This document shows, piece after piece, positions 1 to 6,870 of a DNA stretch of 6,870 nucleotides. The notes under the pieces were generated by a model that saw only the letters and a program-made list of their open reading frames with translations, searched no databases and was not told where the DNA came from. Positions within the stretch are counted from its first letter, which is position 1, and each line of letters begins with the position of its first letter. The translations under genes were made by a program, and so were the position numbers. This stretch comes from a virus (taxonomy: Duplodnaviria > Heunggongvirae > Uroviricota > Caudoviricetes), in IMG/VR virus record IMGVR_UViG_2660238600_000004; one strand, written 5' to 3'.

Positions 1-1284
1 TTACTTCTTCGCCTCTGCAACCACTTTACTACCCACGCCGCGGTTATTGTATTCCCACATGCGGTTGTAGTTAGTGTCATTCAGATTGCGCTGTATTTCG
101 TCGTTATCATCTACGCTGCCGGTATTACCCGCAAACGGACGATTAGAGATCACCGCATCGGCCCACGGTTTAGCCGTGTTAAAACCTTCGTTGATGGCGC
201 TATCACGGATCACCACCTGACCGTTGGTATTGGCATCAACATCCAGCGAGCGGCCCAGTTGCGCCACACCATCACCGAAAGCATTGAAACGGCTGTTTAC
301 GGCGAGGAAACCGTAGTAAATGTTGGACAGCGTAGCCGGTGCAAACACATACGCTTCTTGCTGAGTACGTGAGTTCACCACGCGGAATTCGGTGTTATCG
401 AACACCACTGCGCCGCGACCAGAAACGATATCCACATCCCCTTCAATGTAGCTGTTGGTCACCAGCGTACGCGGCTGACGATTCGTTTCCAGACGGTTCT
501 GCACACCGCTGTTGGTGACAAAGAAGGTGTTCTGACGACCGAGAATGTTAACGTTGTTAATCTGTACCTGGTCACCATCAGTACGCAGTGCCACCGCCGG
601 ATGGTTACCTGCATCTACGCTATCGCCCAGCGTGTTTTCGATGGTCAGATTTTGCAGTTGCAGGCCATTGTTTTGTGACCAGAAGACCGCAGAGCAGAGA
701 ACACCGATACTGTCGCTGCGTTTGCTCTGGCAGCTATCGTACATATACCACGCTGGTTTACCTGGCATATATTTGCCGCGCGGGTTGACGTCGTGACGCC
801 AGTCGGCAGGGCTCATGCCACCATCAAGGGAAAGCCCAATCTTCACATCAATCGGTTTTTCACCTGTACCGTACAGAGTAATTCCACCCGGAGCGGCAGG
901 GACATATACCGTTCCCTGATACTCACCAGGCATCACGGCAATATACTGGCGCTTGTTGGTACGCTTGATAATTGCCGCATCTACCGCCGCCTGAATCGTG
1001 GTATGCGTTACACCTTGAGTGCCCGCCGGGCCGACAACAAAGTCAGGTTGCGCAGGCAGGGTAATCGGGGAAGGATTCCACGCTGCAGCACCTGGTGTCA
1101 GGGATGCAAAATAGTGTTGAGCATCGAAATTCTGCGCTTCTTTTGCCGACAGAATCGGGCGAGAAGAGGTACCAGGCGCGGTTTGATCAGAAGGACGTTG
1201 ATCGGGCGGGGTTGAGCTACAGGCGGTCAGCGTCACGCCAAAAGCCAATGCCAGCGCCAGACGGGAAACTGAAAATGTGTTCAC
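1..1284 (-). CDS. ybhC: YbhC-like putative lipoprotein (pectinesterase-family / acyl-CoA thioesterase-like), host chromosomal gene flanking attL
   Basis: Complete 427-aa ORF with GTG start at 1284 and stop at 1-3. N-terminus MNTFSVSRLALALAFGVTLTAC has a signal peptide and lipobox-like LTAC. Position immediately beside the lambda att core matches the known ybhC-attB-ybhB arrangement in E. coli. Identity is recalled, not searched. Confidence 0.8.
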   Translation of the reverse strand: MNTFSVSRLALALAFGVTLTACSSTPPDQRPSDQTAPGTSSRPILSAKEAQNFDAQHYFASLTPGAAAWNPSPITLPAQPDFVVGPAGTQGVTHTTIQAAVDAAIIKRTNKRQYIAVMPGEYQGTVYVPAAPGGITLYGTGEKPIDVKIGLSLDGGMSPADWRHDVNPRGKYMPGKPAWYMYDSCQSKRSDSIGVLCSAVFWSQNNGLQLQNLTIENTLGDSVDAGNHPAVALRTDGDQVQINNVNILGRQNTFFVTNSGVQNRLETNRQPRTLVTNSYIEGDVDIVSGRGAVVFDNTEFRVVNSRTQQEAYVFAPATLSNIYYGFLAVNSRFNAFGDGVAQLGRSLDVDANTNGQVVIRDSAINEGFNTAKPWADAVISNRPFAGNTGSVDDNDEIQRNLNDTNYNRMWEYNNRGVGSKVVAEAKK

Positions 1285-1330
1285 AGGTTGCTCCGGGCTA
1301 TGAAATAGAAAAATGAATCCGTTGAAGCCT

Positions 1331-1345
1331 GCTTTTTTATACTAA
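1331..1345. other. attL core: 15-bp lambda att common core (overlap region) GCTTTTTTATACTAA
   Basis: Exact 15-mer GCTTTTTTATACTAA seen at 1331-1345. It is preceded by bacterial-side sequence (tgaagcctgc) and followed by phage P'-arm sequence (gttggcattataaaaaagcattgcttatcaatttgttgcaacgaacaggtcactatcagtcaaaataaaatcatt), i.e. a B-O-P' arrangement. Confidence 0.9.
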
Positions 1346-1365
1346 GTTGGCATTATAAAAAAGCA

Positions 1366-1421
1366 TTGCTTATCAATTTGTTGCAACGAACAGGTCACTA
1401 TCAGTCAAAATAAAATCATTA
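1366..1421. promoter_or_regulatory. attL P' arm protein-binding sites: IHF H'-like site (tatcaatttgttg, about 1371-1383) and three tandem Int arm-type sites (aggtcactat / cagtcaaaat / aaaatcatta, about 1392-1421)
   Basis: Sequence matches the IHF consensus WATCAANNNNTTR and the Int arm-type consensus C/AAGTCACTAT known for the lambda P' arm. Sites lie between the core and the int stop codon (1419-1421). Confidence 0.7.
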
Positions 1422-2489
1422 TTTGATTTCAATTTTGTCCCACTCCCTGCCTCTGTCATCACGATACTGTGATGCCATGGTGTCCGACTTATGCCCGAGA
1501 AGATGTTGAGCAAACTTATCGCTTATCTGCTTCTCATAGAGTCTTGCAGACAAACTGCGCAACTCGTGAAAGGTAGGCGGATCCCCTTCGAAGGAAAGAC
1601 CTGATGCTTTTCGTGCGCGCATAAAATACCTTGATACTGTGCCGGATGAAAGCGGTTCGCGACGAGTAGATGCAATTATGGTTTCTCCGCCAAGAATCTC
1701 TTTGCATTTATCAAGTGTTTCCTTCATTGATATTCCGAGAGCATCAACATGCAATGCTGTTGGGATGGCAATTTTTACGCCTGTTTTGCTTTGCTCGACA
1801 TAAAGATATCCATCTACGATATCAGACCACTTCATTTCGCATAAATCACCAACTCGCTGCCCGGTAACAACAGCCAGTTCCATTGCAAGTCTAAGCCAAC
1901 ATGGTGATGATTCTGCTGCTTGATAAATTTTCAGGTATTCGTCAGCCGTAAGTCTTGATCTCCTTACCTCTGATTTTGCAGCGCGAGTGGCTGCGACCGG
2001 GTTTGTTGTTATATGGCCTTCAGCTATAGCCTCTCGGAATGCATCGCTCAGTGTTGATCTGATTAACTTGGCTGATGCCGCCTTTCCCTCGTCTATGTAT
2101 CCATTGAGCATTGCCGCAATTTCTTTTGTGGTGATGTCTTCAAGTGGAGCATCTGGCAGACCCCTCCTTATTGCTTTAATTTTGCTCATGTAATTTATGA
2201 GTGTCTTCTGCTTGATTCCTCTGCTGGCCAGGATTTTTTCGTAGCGATCAAGCCATGAATGTAACGTAACGGAATTATCACTGTTGATTCTCGCTGTCAG
2301 AGGCTTGTGTTTGTGTCCTGAAAATAACTCAATGTTGGCCTGTATAGCTTCAGTGATTGCGATTCGCCTGTCTCGGCCTAATCCAAACTCTTTACCCGTC
2401 CTTGGGTCCCTGTAGCAGTAATATCCATTGTTTCTTATATAAAGGTTAGGGGGTAAATCCCGGCGCTCATGACTTCGCCTTCTTCCCAT
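1419..2489 (-). CDS. int: Lambda-type integrase (tyrosine site-specific recombinase), 356 aa, apparently intact
   Basis: Complete ORF MGRRRSHERRDLPPNLYIRNNGYYCYRDPRTGKEF...REWDKIEIK, which I recognise as lambda Int. It sits directly beside attL and its start overlaps the xis 3' end, as in lambda. Confidence 0.95.
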   Translation of the reverse strand: MGRRRSHERRDLPPNLYIRNNGYYCYRDPRTGKEFGLGRDRRIAITEAIQANIELFSGHKHKPLTARINSDNSVTLHSWLDRYEKILASRGIKQKTLINYMSKIKAIRRGLPDAPLEDITTKEIAAMLNGYIDEGKAASAKLIRSTLSDAFREAIAEGHITTNPVAATRAAKSEVRRSRLTADEYLKIYQAAESSPCWLRLAMELAVVTGQRVGDLCEMKWSDIVDGYLYVEQSKTGVKIAIPTALHVDALGISMKETLDKCKEILGGETIIASTRREPLSSGTVSRYFMRARKASGLSFEGDPPTFHELRSLSARLYEKQISDKFAQHLLGHKSDTMASQYRDDRGREWDKIEIK

Positions 2490-2685
2490 TTCTGATCCTC
2501 TTCAAAAGGCTACCTGTTACTGGTCGATTTAAGTCAACCTTTACCGCTGATTCGTGGAACAGATACTCTCTTCCATCCTTAACCGGAGGAGGGAATATCC
2601 TGCACTCGCGTACCCATCGACGAACTGTTTCAAGGCTTCTTGGGCGTCGCTGGCGTGCGTTCCACTCCTGAAGTGTCAAGTACAT
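2467..2685 (-). CDS. xis: Lambda-type excisionase Xis, 72 aa
   Basis: ORF MYLTLQEWNARQRRPRSLETVRRWVRECRIFPPPVKDGREYLFHESAVKVDLNRPVTGSLLKRIRNGKKAKS matches lambda Xis. It overlaps the int start by 23 nt. Confidence 0.95.
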   Translation of the reverse strand: MYLTLQEWNARQRRPRSLETVRRWVRECRIFPPPVKDGREYLFHESAVKVDLNRPVTGSLLKRIRNGKKAKS

Positions 2686-2711
2686 CGCAAAGTCTCCGCA
2701 ATTACACGCAA
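2663..2711 (-). promoter_or_regulatory. pI-like int promoter region with a CII-type TTGC-N6-TTGC activator site (minus-strand TTGCGTGTAATTGC at 2698-2711)
   Basis: The minus strand reads TTGCGTGTAATTGCGGAGACTTTGCGATGTACTTGACAC. The TTGC-N6-TTGC motif lies just upstream of the xis ATG, so a transcript from here would begin inside xis and express int alone, as described for lambda pI. The exact -10 and start site are not determined. Confidence 0.55.
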
Positions 2712-2724
2712 GAAAAAACCGCCA

Positions 2725-2892
2725 TCAGGCGGCTTGGTGTTCTTTCAGTTCTTCAATTCGAATATTGGTTACGTCTGCATGTGCTATCTGCGCCCACAGC
2801 ATCCAGTGGTCATAGCAGTCGCTGATGTTCTCGGCTTCGATAACTCTGTTGAATGGTTCTCCATTCCATTCACCTGTGACTCGGAAGTGCAT
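2725..2892 (-). CDS. Small hypothetical protein, 55 aa (lambda orf55-like, position-conserved ORF downstream of xis)
   Basis: ORF MHFRVTGEWNGEPFNRVIEAENISDCYDHWMLWAQIAHADVTNIRIEELKEHQAA, not in the supplied track because it is under 60 aa. A GGAG motif lies 7-10 nt upstream of the ATG. Its size and spacing from xis match the orf55 I recall in lambda. Confidence 0.55.
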   Translation of the reverse strand: MHFRVTGEWNGEPFNRVIEAENISDCYDHWMLWAQIAHADVTNIRIEELKEHQAA

Positions 2893-2930
2893 TTATCATC
2901 TCCATAAAACAAAACCCGCCGTAGCGAGTT

Positions 2931-2962
2931 CAGATAAAAGAAATCCTCGTCAGTGCGAGGAT
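2931..2962 (-). terminator. Candidate intrinsic terminator for leftward transcription (7-bp stem atcctcg/cgaggat, 6-nt loop, then a U-rich tract on the minus strand)
   Basis: Inverted repeat at 2943-2949 / 2956-2962. On the minus strand it is followed by TTTCTTTTATCTG (plus 2931-2942). No folding energy was computed. Confidence 0.35.
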
Positions 2963-3134
2963 GCTGTTCATTGCTGCTATACACTTTTTTGCTCTCAACG
3001 TAAGCGGTAGCCCATTCTGTTGGGTTGGTGCAGTTGCTTTTAGGAAATGCTATTTACCCCTTAAATGTCGGCTGAAAGAGCTAAAATCCATGCAAAAAAT
3101 TTACGCAATTTTGTGTATTATTGTGCAGTAAGTA

Positions 3135-3737
3135 ATGAGCTATTTTCTGCGCAAAAAATGGATGGTAAATTTGTCCGGGTCAGGAAAAATTTTATGGGCG
3201 CTAAACATGAAAAAAGATTCGTATCCTTATTTGATTTGCATGACAGTTTCAGGGCTGATCTTTATTTTCCTTTTCTTCTGGTGGCGGGCAGATATCTACA
3301 GGGTCACGTTTCTTAATCAGAGTATATCCCACTATTACATTCTGTTTAGCATGGGAATAGCTTTTCTGTTATCTCTGTTTTGGGTTAAGAAGGGGATAGT
3401 AAAACAAAGCGGCTGGAAGAGTCTGTCAGCATACATTAAGGTTTATGCAGGGATGTGCATATTTGCTGGATTTTTTCTGATTATACCCCTTACGACACTA
3501 ACTTATTTTTTGCCTGGAGAGACATCGTCTTATGTTGCACCGTATCGGTATACTTCCGGTAGTTCAAAAAGTTGTTCTGGAGCTGAGGTGGATGACCCCG
3601 ATCTACATGAGAATATTCGCATTTGCTATCCGTATGGCAATTATGAGTACGATAATATTATCTATGTTGAAAAGAAAATTAATATATTAGGTGCGGTAGT
3701 GACATATGCACAGACCGCGCGTGATGATACTGAATGA
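3135..3737 (+). CDS. Hypothetical membrane protein, 200 aa: three predicted N-terminal TM helices plus an ~75-aa C-terminal soluble domain; AT-rich moron on the strand opposite the early-left operon
   Basis: Complete ORF. Hydrophobic stretches PYLICMTVSGLIFIFLFFWW, SHYYILFSMGIAFLLSLFWV and YIKVYAGMCIFAGFFLIIPLTTLTYFL. Base composition is visibly more AT-rich than the flanking lambda-like DNA. A hairpin terminator follows. Start codon is uncertain (in-frame ATGs at 3135, 3162 and 3207, none with a strong SD). I recognise no family. Confidence 0.6.
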   Translation: MSYFLRKKWMVNLSGSGKILWALNMKKDSYPYLICMTVSGLIFIFLFFWWRADIYRVTFLNQSISHYYILFSMGIAFLLSLFWVKKGIVKQSGWKSLSAYIKVYAGMCIFAGFFLIIPLTTLTYFLPGETSSYVAPYRYTSGSSKSCSGAEVDDPDLHENIRICYPYGNYEYDNIIYVEKKINILGAVVTYAQTARDDTE

Positions 3738-3771
3738 TATAGTATATAGCGGGCAAGTTTTAGTTAATTTA

Positions 3772-3806
3772 TCGAGGTAATATAATTTACCTCGACTCGT
3801 TTGTTC
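3772..3806 (+). terminator. Candidate intrinsic terminator downstream of the membrane-protein gene (9-bp stem tcgaggtaa/ttacctcga, loop tataat, T-rich tail)
   Basis: Perfect inverted repeat at 3772-3780 / 3787-3795, followed by ctcgtttgttctgg. It lies 35 nt after the stop codon at 3735-3737. Confidence 0.45.
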
Positions 3807-3947
3807 TGGTATTAATATTTCGCTTTACGACCGATTTTTATCTGATGATATCATGCGGTTTTCATATACTGACTTACTGTCTTTTCTCCGTTAGCGATTT
3901 TCTCCTGCTCAGCGATGATTTTATCTTTGGCTTCTAGTTAATTTCGC

Positions 3948-4169
3948 TCACTTCGAACCTCTCTGTTTACTGATAAGCTCCAGATCTTGCTGGCAACTGG
4001 CACAAGTCCGACAACCCTGAACGGCCAGTCGTCTTCGTTCATCTATCGGATCGCCACACTCACAACAATGAGTGGCAGATATAGCCTGGTGGTTCAGGCG
4101 GCGCATTTTTATTGCTGTGTTGCGCTGTAATTCTTCAATTTCTGATGCTGAATCAATTATGTCTGCCAT
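3948..4169 (-). CDS. TraR/DksA-family C4 zinc-finger protein, 73 aa (lambdoid TraR-like, Orf73-type)
   Basis: ORF MADIIDSASEIEELQRNTAIKMRRLNHQAISATHCCECGDPIDERRRLAVQGCRTCASCQQDLELISKQRGSK. The CxxC-N17-CxxC spacing and length are typical of F-plasmid TraR and phage TraR-like RNA-polymerase-binding proteins. Confidence 0.8.
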   Translation of the reverse strand: MADIIDSASEIEELQRNTAIKMRRLNHQAISATHCCECGDPIDERRRLAVQGCRTCASCQQDLELISKQRGSK

Positions 4170-4220
4170 CTTTCATTAATCCCTGAATTGTTGGTTAATA
4201 CGCTTGAGGGTGAATGCGAA

Positions 4221-4246
4221 TAATAAAAAAGGAGCCTGTAGCTCCC
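4221..4246 (-). terminator. Candidate short intrinsic terminator on the minus strand (GGAGC-5 nt-GCTCC followed by TTTTTTTATT on the minus strand)
   Basis: Inverted repeat at 4231-4235 / 4241-4245 with a run of seven A at 4224-4230 on the plus strand. The stem is only 5 bp, so this is weak. Confidence 0.3.
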
Positions 4247-4267
4247 TGATGATTTTGCTTTTCATGT

Positions 4268-4483
4268 TCACCGTTCCTTAAAGACGCCGTTCAACATGCC
4301 GATCGCCAGGCTTAAATGAGTCGGTGTGAATCCCATCAGCGTTACCGTTTCGCGGTGCTTCTTTAGTACGCTACGGCAAATGTCATCGACGTTTTTATCC
4401 GGAAACTGCTGTCTGGCTTTTTTGATTTCAGAATTAGCCTGACGGGCAATGCTGCGAAGGGCGTTTTCTTGCTGAGGTGTCAT
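4268..4483 (-). CDS. Hypothetical small protein, 71 aa (alternative upstream start at 4549 gives 93 aa)
   Basis: ORF MTPQQENALRSIARQANSEIKKARQQFPDKNVDDICRSVLKKHRETVTLMGFTPTHLSLAIGMLNGVFKER. The ATG at 4481-4483 overlaps the stop of the upstream micro-ORF (ATGA), suggesting translational coupling. No family recognised. Confidence 0.45.
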   Translation of the reverse strand: MTPQQENALRSIARQANSEIKKARQQFPDKNVDDICRSVLKKHRETVTLMGFTPTHLSLAIGMLNGVFKER

Positions 4484-4563
4484 TGAACAAGCCCCATGTC
4501 GGCAAGCATAAGCACACAGAATATGAAGCCCGCTGCCAGAAAAATGCATTCAGTGGTTGTCAT
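4480..4563 (-). CDS. Candidate hydrophobic micro-ORF, 27 aa (MTTTECIFLAAGFIFCVLMLADMGLVQ), translationally coupled on both sides
   Basis: Its ATG at 4561-4563 overlaps the orf63-like stop (ATGA) and its TGA overlaps the next ATG (ATGA). The peptide has one predicted TM-like segment. It is below the ORF-track size cutoff. It could instead be a coupling artefact, and its frame overlaps the N-terminal extension of the 93-aa version of the next ORF. Confidence 0.3.
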   Translation of the reverse strand: MTTTECIFLAAGFIFCVLMLADMGLVQ

Positions 4564-4751
4564 ACCTGGTCTCTCTCATCTGCTTCTGCTTTCGCCACCA
4601 TCATTTCCAGCTTTTGTGAAAGGGATGCGGCTAACGTATGAAATTCTTCGTCTGTTTCTACTGGTATTGGCACAAACCTGACTCCAATTTGAGCGAGGCT
4701 ATGTGCCATCTCGATACTCGTTCTTAACTCAACGGGAGATGCTTTGTGCAT
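4560..4751 (-). CDS. Small hypothetical protein, 63 aa (lambda orf63-like by size and position)
   Basis: [66 protein letters not shown]. Its length (192 nt with stop) and 28-nt overlap with the upstream ORF match the orf63/orf60a arrangement I recall for lambda. Confidence 0.55.
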   Translation of the reverse strand: MHKASPVELRTSIEMAHSLAQIGVRFVPIPVETDEEFHTLAASLSQKLEMMVAKAEADERDQV

Positions 4752-4906
4752 ACAGCTCCCCGTTTATTATTTATCTCCTCAGCCAGCCGCTGTGCTTTCA
4801 GGGGATTTCTGATAACAGAAAGGCCGGGAAATACCCAGCCTCGCTTTGTAATGGAGTAGACGAAAGTGATCGCGCCTACCCGGATATTATCGTGAGGATG
4901 CGTCAT
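4724..4906 (-). CDS. Small hypothetical protein, 60 aa (lambda orf60a-like); start chosen at the ATG overlapping the exo stop
   Basis: [63 protein letters not shown]. The track begins it two codons earlier (4912). The ATG at 4904-4906 forms an ATGA overlap with the exo stop, matching the 4-nt exo/orf60a overlap in lambda. Confidence 0.5.
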
Positions 4907-5583
4907 CGCCATTGCTCCCCAAATACAAAACCAATTTCAGCCAGTGCCTCGTCCATTTTTTCGATGAACTCCGGCACCATCTCGTCAAAACTCGCCATGT
5001 AATTTTCATCCCGCTCAACCACGACATAATGCAGGCCTTCACGCTTCATTCGTGGGTCATAGTTGGCAAAGTACCAGGCATCTTTTCGCGTCACCCACAT
5101 GCTGTACTGCACCTGGGCCATGTAAGCCGACTTTATGGCCTCGAAACCACCGAGCCGGAATTTCATGAAATCCCGGGAGGTAAACGGGCATTTCAGCTCA
5201 AGGCCATTGCCGTCACTGCATAAACCATCGGGAGAGCAGGCGGTGCGCATACTTTCGTCGCGATAGATGATCGGGGATTCAATAACATTTACGCCGGAAG
5301 TGAACTCAAACAGGGTTCTGGCGTCGTTCTCGTACTGTTTTCCCCAGGCCAGCGCTTTAGCGTTAACTTCCGGAGCCACACCGGTGCAAACCTCAGCCAG
5401 CAGGGTGTGGAAGTAGGACATTTTCATGTCAGGCCACTTCTTTCCTGATCGGGGCTTTGCTATCACGTTGTGAACTTCTGAAGCGGTGATGACGCCGAGC
5501 CGTAATTTGTGCCATGCATCATCCCCCTGTTCGACAGCTCTCACGTCGATCCCGGTACGCTGCAGGATAATGTCCGGTGTCAT
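4903..5583 (-). CDS. exo: Lambda exonuclease (Red-alpha, 5'-3' dsDNA exonuclease), 226 aa, intact
   Basis: [71 protein letters not shown]...[10 protein letters not shown], recognised as lambda Exo. Its start overlaps the bet stop in ATGA fashion. Confidence 0.95.
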
Positions 5584-5774
5584 GCTGCCACCTTCTGCTC
5601 AGTGGCTTTCTGTTTCAGGAATCCAAGAGCTTTCACTGCTTCGGCCTGTGTCAGTTCTGACGATGCGCGAATGTCGCGGCGAAATATCTGGGAACAGAGC
5701 GGCAATAAGTCGTCATCCCATGTTTTATCCAGGGCAATCAGCAGAGTGTTAATCTCCTGCATGGTTTCATCGTT
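5580..5774 (-). pseudogene. bet: 3' fragment of bet (Red-beta), C-terminal ~64 codons only; N-terminal ~200 codons absent
   Basis: The minus frame reads ...[64 protein letters not shown], matching the lambda Bet C-terminus as I recall it. Immediately upstream the frame reads SYPAQPS after a stop at 5796-5798, instead of the Bet sequence (..ERDITPV..). Homology therefore ends near 5775. Confidence 0.8.
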
Positions 5775-5797
5775 ACTTGGTTGAGCAGGATAGCTTC

Positions 5798-5980
5798 ATG
5801 GCTAGGTTGGCTGAAATGGAAAAGGAACTCAGTGAGGCAAAACAGGCTGTCATTCTCAACGCACCACGCCACCAGAAACTGAAGGAAATTAGTGAAGGTA
5901 TTGTGTCGATGTTTCGTGTGGACCCAGATCTGGCTGGTCCATTGATGGCGATGGTTACTACCATGCTGGGGGCGATATGA
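5798..5980 (+). CDS. Hypothetical small protein, 60 aa (MARLAEMEKELSEAKQAVILNAPRHQKLKEISEGIVSMFRVDPDLAGPLMAMVTTMLGAI); possibly a remnant of a gene upstream of O
   Basis: ORF with AGGA 7 nt upstream of the ATG at 5798. The track starts it at a TTG at 5777. It lies exactly at the bet truncation joint. No HTH or known family recognised. Confidence 0.3.
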   Translation: MARLAEMEKELSEAKQAVILNAPRHQKLKEISEGIVSMFRVDPDLAGPLMAMVTTMLGAI

Positions 5981-6066
5981 CAGGTTCAGAAATGGCGAAA
6001 GCCGGTCTGCTGGAACAGAACCGACTTTCAGGTGCAAATCGTAACACACTCATTGCGGGAGGAATT

Positions 6067-6870
6067 ATGGCAAACACTGCTGAGATATTCAATTTTCCAG
6101 TGCCGGATGCGGCACAAAAGGAGCCGCGCGTGGCAGATCTCGATGATGGTTATACGCGCATTGCAAATGAGTTGCTGGAAGCTGTGATGCTGGCCGGATT
6201 AACACAGCACCAGCTTCTGGTCTTCCTAGCTGTCATGCGCAAAACATATGGCTTTAATAAAAAACTGGATTGGGTGAGCAACGAGCAACTGTCCGAATTG
6301 ACCGGGATATTGCCGCACAAGTGTTCTGCTGCAAAAAGTGTTCTGGTAAAGCGTGGGATTCTTATTCAGAGCGGGCGGAATACCGGCATTAATAATGTGG
6401 TCAGTGAATGGTCAACATTACCCGAATCAGGTAAGAAAAATAAAGTTTACCTGAAAGAGGTAAATTTACCTGAATCAGGTAAAAAAAGTTTACCCAAATC
6501 AGGTAAAGACGTTTACCCGAATCAGGTAAACACAAAAGACAAACTAACAAAAGACAATATAAAACCTTTTTCGTCCGAGAATTCTGGCGAATCCTCTGAC
6601 CAGCCAGAAAACGACCTTCCTGTGGAGAAACCAGATGCTGCAATTCAGAGCGGCAGCAGGTGGGGGACAGCAGAAGACCTGACCGCCGCAGAGTGGATGT
6701 TTGACATGGTGAAGACCATCGCGCCATCAGCCAGAAAACCGAATTTTGCAGGGTGGGCTATACCGCCAGCTTGGTTGATAAAAAATGGTTGCGACTGGCA
6801 GCAAGGAGGAGTCATGGCTGATTTGAGAAAAGCAGCGCGTGGTCGGGAATGCCAGGTAAGAATCCCTGGC
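6067..6870 (+). CDS. Lambdoid O-family replication initiator (N-terminal iteron-binding domain plus internal origin); 3' end not defined in window
   Basis: GGGAGGA SD at 6056-6062 and ATG at 6067. Translation MANTAEIFNFPVPDAAQKEPRVADLDDGYTRIANELLEAVMLAGLTQHQLLVFLAVMRKTYGFNKKLDWVSNEQLSELTG...VSEW parallels the lambda O N-terminus (MTNTAKILNF...VADLDDGYARLSNMLLEA...LRKTYGWNKPMD...SQLSEIT...ISEW). The frame stays open to the window end. Sequence after about 6755 appears to derive from ninE/ybcO-like DNA, so the native 3' end is probably missing. Confidence 0.8.
   Translation, partial: MANTAEIFNFPVPDAAQKEPRVADLDDGYTRIANELLEAVMLAGLTQHQLLVFLAVMRKTYGFNKKLDWVSNEQLSELTGILPHKCSAAKSVLVKRGILIQSGRNTGINNVVSEWSTLPESGKKNKVYLKEVNLPESGKKSLPKSGKDVYPNQVNTKDKLTKDNIKPFSSENSGESSDQPENDLPVEKPDAAIQSGSRWGTAEDLTAAEWMFDMVKTIAPSARKPNFAGWAIPPAWLIKNGCDWQQGGVMADLRKAARGRECQVRIPG
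6417..6530. repeat. Replication-origin iterons: five ~19-bp direct repeats, consensus TTTACCYRAATCAGGTAAA, each an internal dyad (TTTACC..GGTAAA)
   Basis: Copies at about 6417-6435, 6446-6464, 6465-6483, 6489-6507 and 6512-6530, all inside the O-like coding frame. They encode a repeated LPESGKK-like peptide. Layout is as in ori-lambda but the repeat sequence differs. Confidence 0.8.
6531..6590. other. AT-rich tract immediately after the iterons (candidate DNA-unwinding region of the origin)
   Basis: cacaaaagacaaactaacaaaagacaatataaaacctttttcgtcc is strongly A/T-rich. Its position relative to the iterons mirrors ori-lambda. Confidence 0.6.
6756..6821 (+). pseudogene. ninE-like 3' fragment (reads ..GYTASLVDKKWLRLAARRSHG-stop); no in-frame start codon upstream
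   Basis: The frame ending in TGA at 6819-6821 gives a C-terminus I recall from prophage NinE proteins. The same frame has a stop at 6702-6704 and no ATG after it. The stop overlaps the next ATG (ATGGCTGA). Identity is from memory. Confidence 0.4.
6814..6870 (+). CDS. YbcO-like (DUF1364, cysteine-rich putative nuclease of the nin region) protein, 5' end only; continues beyond window
   Basis: Strong SD AAGGAGGA at 6802-6809 and ATG at 6814. MADLRKAARGRECQVRIPG matches the N-terminus I recall for E. coli DLP12 YbcO. Confidence 0.5.
   Translation, partial: MADLRKAARGRECQVRIPG

Follow-up and report, generated by a model that had tools for sequence, protein, structure and literature searches.

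Layout of the locus

The window analyzed here is the whole 6,870-nucleotide stretch of IMG/VR record IMGVR_UViG_2660238600_000004 (Caudoviricetes), and its genes and features are collected in Table 1. The surroundings are a lambdoid prophage integrated at the classical att-lambda site, whose attL is the exact lambda att core next to ybhC. Beside ybhC, the synteny of orf73-orf61-orf63-orf60a-exo-bet together with int-xis has been kept. Over 3936-5775, the identity of the DNA is 97.1% with lambda and 99.5% with phage mEp332. Homology to lambda stops at position 3936, which marks a mosaic boundary. Here the window differs from lambda in that ea22 has been replaced five codons in by a convergent cassette on the plus strand, as in phages 434, mEp332 and 2B8. 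This cassette encodes a 56-aa open reading frame and a 200-aa predicted membrane protein. The latter matches phrog_1416 over its C-terminal 88 aa, and no match to it was found in Pfam or NCBIfam. The module is common to 434, mEp332 and 2B8 and looks like a moron.

Table 1. Genes and sequence features of the window, in order of position.
Feature	Position	Strand	Basis or remark
ybhC	1-1284	-	
Exact lambda att core, GCTTTTTTATACTAA, between ybhC and int	1331-1345	+	
int	1419-2489	-	
xis	2467-2685	-	
55-aa open reading frame, phrog_676	2725-2892	-	
Cassette in place of ea22	2961-3737	+	
Hairpin between orf73 and the convergent plus-strand cassette	3772-3795		Scan; -13.8 and -12.9 kcal/mol on the two strands
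Five-codon ea22 remnant, GTG AGC GAA ATT AAC, then TAG; overlaps the orf73 stop	3934-3951	-	Lambda Ea22 starts VSEIN
orf73, 73-aa TraR-family zinc-finger protein, lambda Orf73 orthologue by sequence	3948-4169	-	Open reading frame list, profile matches, lambda alignment
C4 zinc finger, C35-x2-C38, 17 residues, C56-x2-C59; takes in R46/R47 and the extra cysteines C36 and C53	3993-4067	-	Translation; alignment to TraR 5w1s_M; six-cysteine description in PMC9239242
DxxDxA motif in the N-terminal helix, codons D3-I-I-D6-S-A8	4146-4163	-	Translation; motif definition in PMC9239242
Small open reading frame, 31 aa from GTG 4271 or 29 aa from ATG 4265	4176-4271	-	Open reading frame listing; CDS in some lambda and mEp332 records
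Predicted intrinsic terminator t2 (hairpin 4247-4229 and T-tract)	4219-4247	-	Terminator scan; RNA fold; PMC4195576 Table 4
Predicted promoter p1 (BPROM; Bloch et al.), -35 TCATCA, -10 TTTTATTAT	4220-4252	-	PMC4195576 Table 3; overlaps the t2 hairpin
orf61-like gene	4268-4483	-	
orf63 (DUF1382)	4560-4751	-	
orf60a (DUF1317)	4724-4912	-	
Stronger hairpin, t1 of Bloch et al., in the orf60a/orf63 overlap	4820-4842	-	Scan, 9 pairs, 6 of them GC; PMC4195576 Table 4
exo	4903-5583	-	
bet, last 65 codons	5580-5775	-	
Deletion junction with GTTA microhomology	5772-5775		Comparison with the E. coli E24377A prophage
Leftward promoter-like site, TTGAAT-17-CATAAT with upstream TG (extended -10)	6064-6092	-	Scan; lambda alignment

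The orf73 gene and its product

An initial annotation had placed a 73-aa open reading frame on the minus strand between the ea22 remnant and the small open reading frame. The listing of open reading frames reproduced its coordinates exactly, with an ATG start and 73 codons followed by a stop. The predicted protein is identical to lambda Orf73 at 71 of 73 residues (97%) with no gaps. The two substitutions relative to lambda are V49A, near R46/R47, and E61Q, in the C-terminal helix. The gene has the same start, stop and length as in lambda, and its frame is uninterrupted. At 73 aa, the product falls within the range of about 70-80 aa that is typical of TraR-family proteins.

The translation holds six cysteines (C35, C36, C38, C53, C56 and C59), the number also carried by lambda Orf73 (PMC9239242). 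The CxxC-N17-CxxC architecture described by the initial annotation is correct, with C35/C38 (C35-C36-E37-C38) and C56/C59 (C56-A57-S58-C59) forming the two pairs and 17 residues (G39-T55) separating C38 from C56. In TraR, the N-terminal helix that bears the DxxDxA motif reaches the active-site region of RNA polymerase (RNAP) (PMC9239242). In the phmmer alignment to the TraR chain 5w1s_M, R46/R47 align with R48/R49, a pair that accounts for contacts with the rim helices and beta' Si3 (PMC9239242).

Homology searches bore out the proposed membership in the TraR family. The protein matched Pfam PF01258 (zf-dskA_traR) with an E-value of 5.1e-09 and 36.4 bits, above the gathering cut-off of 24.9. 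It also matched phrog_54 (DksA-like zinc-finger protein) over residues 1-71 (E = 1.8e-25; model positions 1-72 of 75). The match to NCBIfam TIGR02419 (C4_traR_proteo) spanned the whole model (1-64 of 64; E = 5.7e-15) and, at 55.6 bits, fell short of the curated cut-off (59.7) by 4 bits. In a search of PDB sequences, the F-plasmid TraR chains from RNAP complexes (5w1s and 6n57) matched residues 1-64, with an E-value of 7.8e-05 for 5w1s_M. Every sequence-level defining feature that was tested was found, except for the narrow shortfall on the one curated HMM cut-off. A low-confidence AlphaFold2 model from the single sequence (mean pLDDT only 56.5) placed helices at residues 5-30 and 56-70 around a non-helical stretch at 31-55, which supports no more than the helix-globular-helix layout expected of the family. 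Wild-type lambda Orf73 likewise models poorly (PMC9239242). By its sequence, the window gene is a lambda Orf73 orthologue and a member of the TraR family.

Several E. coli genomes have the same orf73 allele (A49 and Q61), and so does mEp332, a viable phage that plates on K-12. Of 5426 complete E. coli genomes, 3315 (61%) carry the gene with its leader, and RefSeq names the product there "TraR/DksA family transcriptional regulator." Across eight alleles compared, orf73 was intact in seven, including several other att-lambda remnants that lack the early region. The sole broken allele belongs to assembly GCA_900449145.1 (11945-12306 of sequence L004), in which a nonsense codon at position 13 and a 1-nt deletion (frameshift) make orf73 a pseudogene. 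Could the window copy also be a chance open reading frame or a decayed pseudogene that lacks coding capacity? The prophage is defective, and the related allele in GCA_900449145.1 has its nonsense codon and frameshift. This explanation is barely credible for a full-length frame that has the lambda start and stop, profile matches with E-values down to 1.8e-25 and an allele identical to that of a viable phage.

Transcriptional activity of Orf73 and its relatives

The activity of Orf73 has been characterized with the lambda protein, which was identified as "Orf2310" in a ribosome-profiling study cited by PMC9239242. Purified lambda Orf73 was shown to compete with DksA for RNAP and to bind at the DksA site (PMC9239242). 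In reactions without ppGpp, about 50 nM of the protein gave half-maximal inhibition (IC50) of the promoters rrnB P1 and rpsT P2, and this activity was lost in the D3N and D6N variants (PMC9239242). Lambda Orf73 also complements a dksA deletion on minimal medium (PMC9239242). When it was induced from pL, host growth was slower and plating efficiency was lower by about 10^4-fold (PMC9239242). Phage yield was 3-4 fold higher with lambda orf73, a result that stands in a literature that conflicts on the sign of the effect (PMC9239242).

The initial annotation had proposed that the window protein binds RNAP and has DksA/ppGpp-like effects. Binding and inhibition of an rRNA promoter have indeed been shown for lambda Orf73 (PMC9239242). 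The idea of full mimicry did not hold: lambda Orf73 inhibits rRNA and ribosomal protein promoters, and the promoters of thrABC and argI as well as rpoH P3 are activated weakly if at all (PMC9239242). Since activation is this weak, lambda Orf73 is not a complete DksA/ppGpp mimic.

Given the 97% identity, the window copy would be expected to bind RNAP at the DksA site, that is, in the secondary channel, making no contact with DNA, as was shown for lambda Orf73 and F TraR. Its N-terminal helix would carry the DxxDxA tip toward the active site, with the globular zinc-finger domain (including R46/R47) and the C-terminal helix probably contacting RNAP. Acting alone and independently of ppGpp, the protein would inhibit kinetically sensitive promoters such as those for rRNA and ribosomal proteins. 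In lambda, this inhibition redirects host resources in the lytic cycle, with a gain in phage yield. Unlike TraR, Orf73 would activate amino-acid promoters weakly if at all. The window copy would work in this manner if it were expressed.

Lambda Orf73 is also the closest comparison for gene context. The window and lambda have the same upstream neighbors (a 29-aa open reading frame, t2, orf61, orf63, orf60a and exo), the same DxxDxA tip, C4 finger, R46/R47 pair and two extra cysteines, and the same att-lambda site by ybhC. They differ in that all of the early control region, from bet to cII, is missing from the window prophage. The F-plasmid TraR protein shares the length of 73 aa, the DxxDxA-bearing N-terminal helix, the CxxC-N17-CxxC finger, the arginine pair after the first CxxC and the C-terminal helix. 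Like lambda Orf73, it works without ppGpp at about 50 nM on rrnB P1 (PMC9239242). However, TraR is a distant relative by its phmmer E-value, has four cysteines rather than six, and is encoded in a conjugation operon rather than in a phage early operon. Amino-acid and tra promoters are activated by TraR, while activation by lambda Orf73 is weak if present at all. E. coli DksA belongs to the same family (PF01258), shares with Orf73 a site on RNAP for which the two compete, and likewise requires its tip aspartates. DksA is about twice as long and has a full coiled coil. DksA and TraR are only distantly homologous; DksA needs ppGpp for full activity, and TraR and its homologs act at lower concentrations than DksA does (PMC9239242).

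A function outside RNAP has also to be weighed, in which this DksA/TraR-type finger protein would serve as a YbiI-like host stress protein or would directly inhibit the initiation of replication in the host (the old "bin" phenotype known from lambda exo-xis). The top PDB sequence match of Orf73 was E. coli YbiI (2kgo, E = 1.1e-05), slightly ahead of TraR. YbiI shares the C4 finger of DksA and TraR, but it is a chromosomal protein with a solved chain of 108 residues. The similarity is confined to the finger (residues 29-65) with none at the N-terminal tip region, whereas the TraR match starts at residue 1 and covers the DxxDxA tip. As for replication, exo-xis genes including orf73 have been implicated in blocking its initiation in the host; yet the effect of Orf73 on dnaA mRNA is weak, and the effect on replication is indirect according to the authors (PMC9239242). 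The 97%-identical lambda protein was directly shown to bind RNAP and to inhibit transcription in vitro (PMC9239242). A role apart from RNAP has already been largely refuted by that work and is very improbable here.

Predicted terminators and leader upstream of orf73

A candidate terminator at 4221-4246, upstream of orf73, had been pointed out in the initial annotation. The hairpin and T-tract there are real and had already been published as t2 (PMC4195576). In the terminator scan, the t2 hairpin at 4247-4229 (minus strand) has a stem of 8 pairs and a loop of 3 nt, and TTTTATTATT follows it. Folded as RNA, it has a free energy of -10.2 kcal/mol compared with a shuffle mean of -4.97 (z = -2.78), and 1 of 200 shuffles folds equally well. 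The terminator lies 50-78 nt upstream of the orf73 ATG, inside the small open reading frame. Bloch et al. (2014) predicted t2 for lambda and Phi24B, and in lambda it was linked by RT-qPCR to lower mRNA of orf73, ea22 and ea8.5 (PMC4195576). The 38-nt t2 sequence of the window, AAAATCATCAGGGAGCTACAGGCTCCTTTTTTATTATT, is identical to t2-lambda and t2-Phi24B (PMC4195576 Table 4). Both the leader and the t2 hairpin were invariant across the eight orf73 alleles compared.

The small open reading frame overlaps the stop of orf61 (GTGA), and 6 nt separate its end from the ATG of orf73. No match to it was found in Pfam, NCBIfam or PHROG. The t2 hairpin falls in its codons R-E-L-Q-A-P. If the frame is translated, ribosomes would traverse the t2 hairpin, and translation, termination and the initiation of orf73 could conceivably be coupled.

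The t1 hairpin in the orf60a/orf63 overlap, at -18.5 kcal/mol (z = -3.5), is stronger than t2 and also sits between any upstream promoter and orf73. We take this hairpin to be the classical lambda tL3. When the whole window was scanned against Rfam at E <= 1, the only matches were three chance ones below threshold (two miRNA models and rliD), which leave the leader, the hairpins and the oop-like region uncovered.

The same stretch of leader holds the predicted promoter p1, whose sequence is conserved letter for letter in the published phages (PMC4195576) and in the alleles compared. Its hexamers, counted by eye, match the consensus at 3/6 and 4/6 positions with an 18-nt spacing, which makes it weak, and p1 was not called by the sigma-70 scan of the window. 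On account of these matches and the missing call, p1 was set aside as a real promoter and kept only as part of the alternative considered below. The Stx phages Phi24B and 933W encode an orf73 homologue, annotated as "putative C4 zinc finger protein," at the same position of the exo-xis region and with identical t2 and p1 (PMC4195576). In Phi24B, orf73 mRNA is abundant despite t2, and after H2O2 treatment in particular it exceeds that of the other exo-xis genes (PMC4195576).

Loss of the early control region

Among relatives in which the junction is intact, the prophage of E. coli E24377A is the closest. Positions 1-5775 of the window are 99.0% identical to it and positions 5772-6760 are 98.7% identical. 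Between these two parts, 3196 bp of the E24377A prophage are absent from the window. At the junction, the 65 codons that remain from the end of bet meet the 3' end of a cII-like gene in antisense orientation. The missing 3196 bp hold the 5' three-quarters of bet, gam, a kil-like gene, an S24 repressor, a cro-like gene and the 5' part of the cII-like gene, which is of the YdaT type. By lambdoid gene order, the deleted interval includes the early leftward promoter (pL) and any N. The initial annotation had described a prophage lacking N, which was borne out for the window but understated the loss, as the whole interval from bet to cII has been deleted. No N-sized open reading frame was found between the kil-like gene and the repressor in E24377A (8449-9047 of sequence L003). 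The E24377A element is itself a remnant, in which ren is followed directly by emrE (L003 12391-12960) as in DLP12, though it lies at att-lambda. The exact deletion junction was not found in GTDB species representatives or JGI metagenomes, and the window had no single-piece match among the 5426 complete E. coli genomes.

What could drive transcription of orf73 after this deletion? The promoter scan called no sigma-70-like leftward site in 4170-5775. The only such site found upstream of orf73 is the extended -10 site near the start of O. It aligns with lambda hexamers at the O start, where CATAAT is identical and lambda has TTGAGT, and it overlaps the lambda-equivalent O ATG at 6067. This site is presumably pO, the oop promoter. 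A long hairpin with a poor U-tail follows downstream at about 5997-6029 (minus strand). An oop-like antisense RNA from 6064-6092 is possible, and it had no Rfam match. As a result of the deletion, read-through from the pO-like site would enter the truncated bet, then exo and the genes down to orf73. Before it reached orf73, a transcript starting at about 6057 would have to pass three hairpins over about 1.9 kb with no antitermination.

In lambda, orf73 is a distal member of the N-antiterminated pL operon. Judged by gene order, the 3.2-kb deletion of the interval from bet to the cII-like gene would have removed pL and any N along with the repressor, and the two predicted hairpin terminators (4820-4842 and 4229-4247) persist upstream of orf73. 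The deletion and the remaining terminators together make orf73 most likely an intact relic without an early leftward promoter. The lambda mode of expression from pL with N cannot operate here because of the context of this copy, not because of a property of the protein. We consider it very probable that the gene is a lambda Orf73 orthologue with a TraR-type mechanism, here orphaned from its early leftward promoter.

Could the same protein still be transcribed independently of pL and N? Transcription would then come from p1, possibly in response to stress, or from pO-like read-through, and the product would act as a ppGpp-independent brake on ribosome synthesis encoded by a domesticated gene. 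The letter-for-letter conservation of p1 and the excess of orf73 mRNA in Phi24B after H2O2 (PMC4195576) are in keeping with the first source, although p1 is a weak match that was uncalled by the scan. The survival of the extended -10 site at 6092-6064 (minus strand), with a next hairpin of poor U-tail, agrees with the second, but read-through from 6057 would face the 1.9 kb and three hairpins with no N. Uninduced lambda lysogens grown at 30 C with and without orf73 showed no difference, with ratios of 0.95 for rRNA and 0.93 for rpsT mRNA (PMC9239242), which argues against meaningful expression that does not depend on pL. The 10^4-fold drop in plating efficiency (PMC9239242) shows that Orf73 expression is costly. 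Intact orf73 in seven of eight alleles, among them att-lambda remnants that lack the early region, and its presence in 3315 of 5426 complete genomes speak for this reading. However, one allele is a pseudogene, and an intact 222-nt gene is expected by chance in young remnants. Taken with the evidence on both sides, expression of this kind is unlikely.

The further step, that hosts have co-opted orf73 in att-lambda remnants lacking pL by means of a stress-responsive p1 or pO-like read-through, appears improbable. If it were true, the cell would gain a ppGpp-independent throttle on ribosome synthesis under oxidative or other stress. A copy that is expressed would represent a phage-derived "stringent-response mimic" kept by the host, but the lack of an orf73 effect in uninduced lysogens and the weak promoters point otherwise. 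The orf73 gene of the window is most likely the intact relic of a defective att-lambda prophage, silent or transcribed at a background level.

Nothing here is new in kind: the literature (PMC9239242; PMC4195576) already contains the protein with its family and mechanism, the terminator, and the question whether orf73 is expressed independently of pL. The significance is mostly one of annotation. The local question concerns the expression of a growth-inhibiting effector of RNAP in a promoterless remnant.

Rearrangements in bet and the replication origin

The deletion breakpoint falls in the only GTTAAC of bet (bet nt 589-594; window 5772-5777). In other E. coli genomes, three further and distinct rearrangements have a breakpoint in these 6 nt of bet. 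One joins gam to bet, one joins the ninG side to bet, and strain 11PC retains the other side of bet, the N-terminal one, fused to a fragment of int at the argU/DLP12 site. The breakpoints lie near 9990-9995 in sequences L005/L008 and L006/L007/L009 and at 2697-2704 in L011. Short imperfect homologies are visible at two of the bet junctions, and a fifth bet rearrangement breaks elsewhere. The exact-protein look-up behind two of the bet cases could accept breakpoints over 138 nt, and the other two cases were selected otherwise. The GTTAAC, at the linker that precedes the C-terminal domain of Red-beta, may be a hot spot of rearrangement.

Similarity to related prophages ends at 6760, within O. 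The start of O is placed at 5977 by RefSeq and at the lambda-equivalent ATG 6067 by the lambda alignment; either is possible, and the finding on orf73 is unaffected by the choice. Within O, five iterons (TTACCYGAATCAGGTAA) were found on the plus strand at 6418-6534. They are 18-22-nt palindromic repeats with 19-29-nt spacing, followed by an A-rich stretch, and are the expected lambdoid origin of replication.
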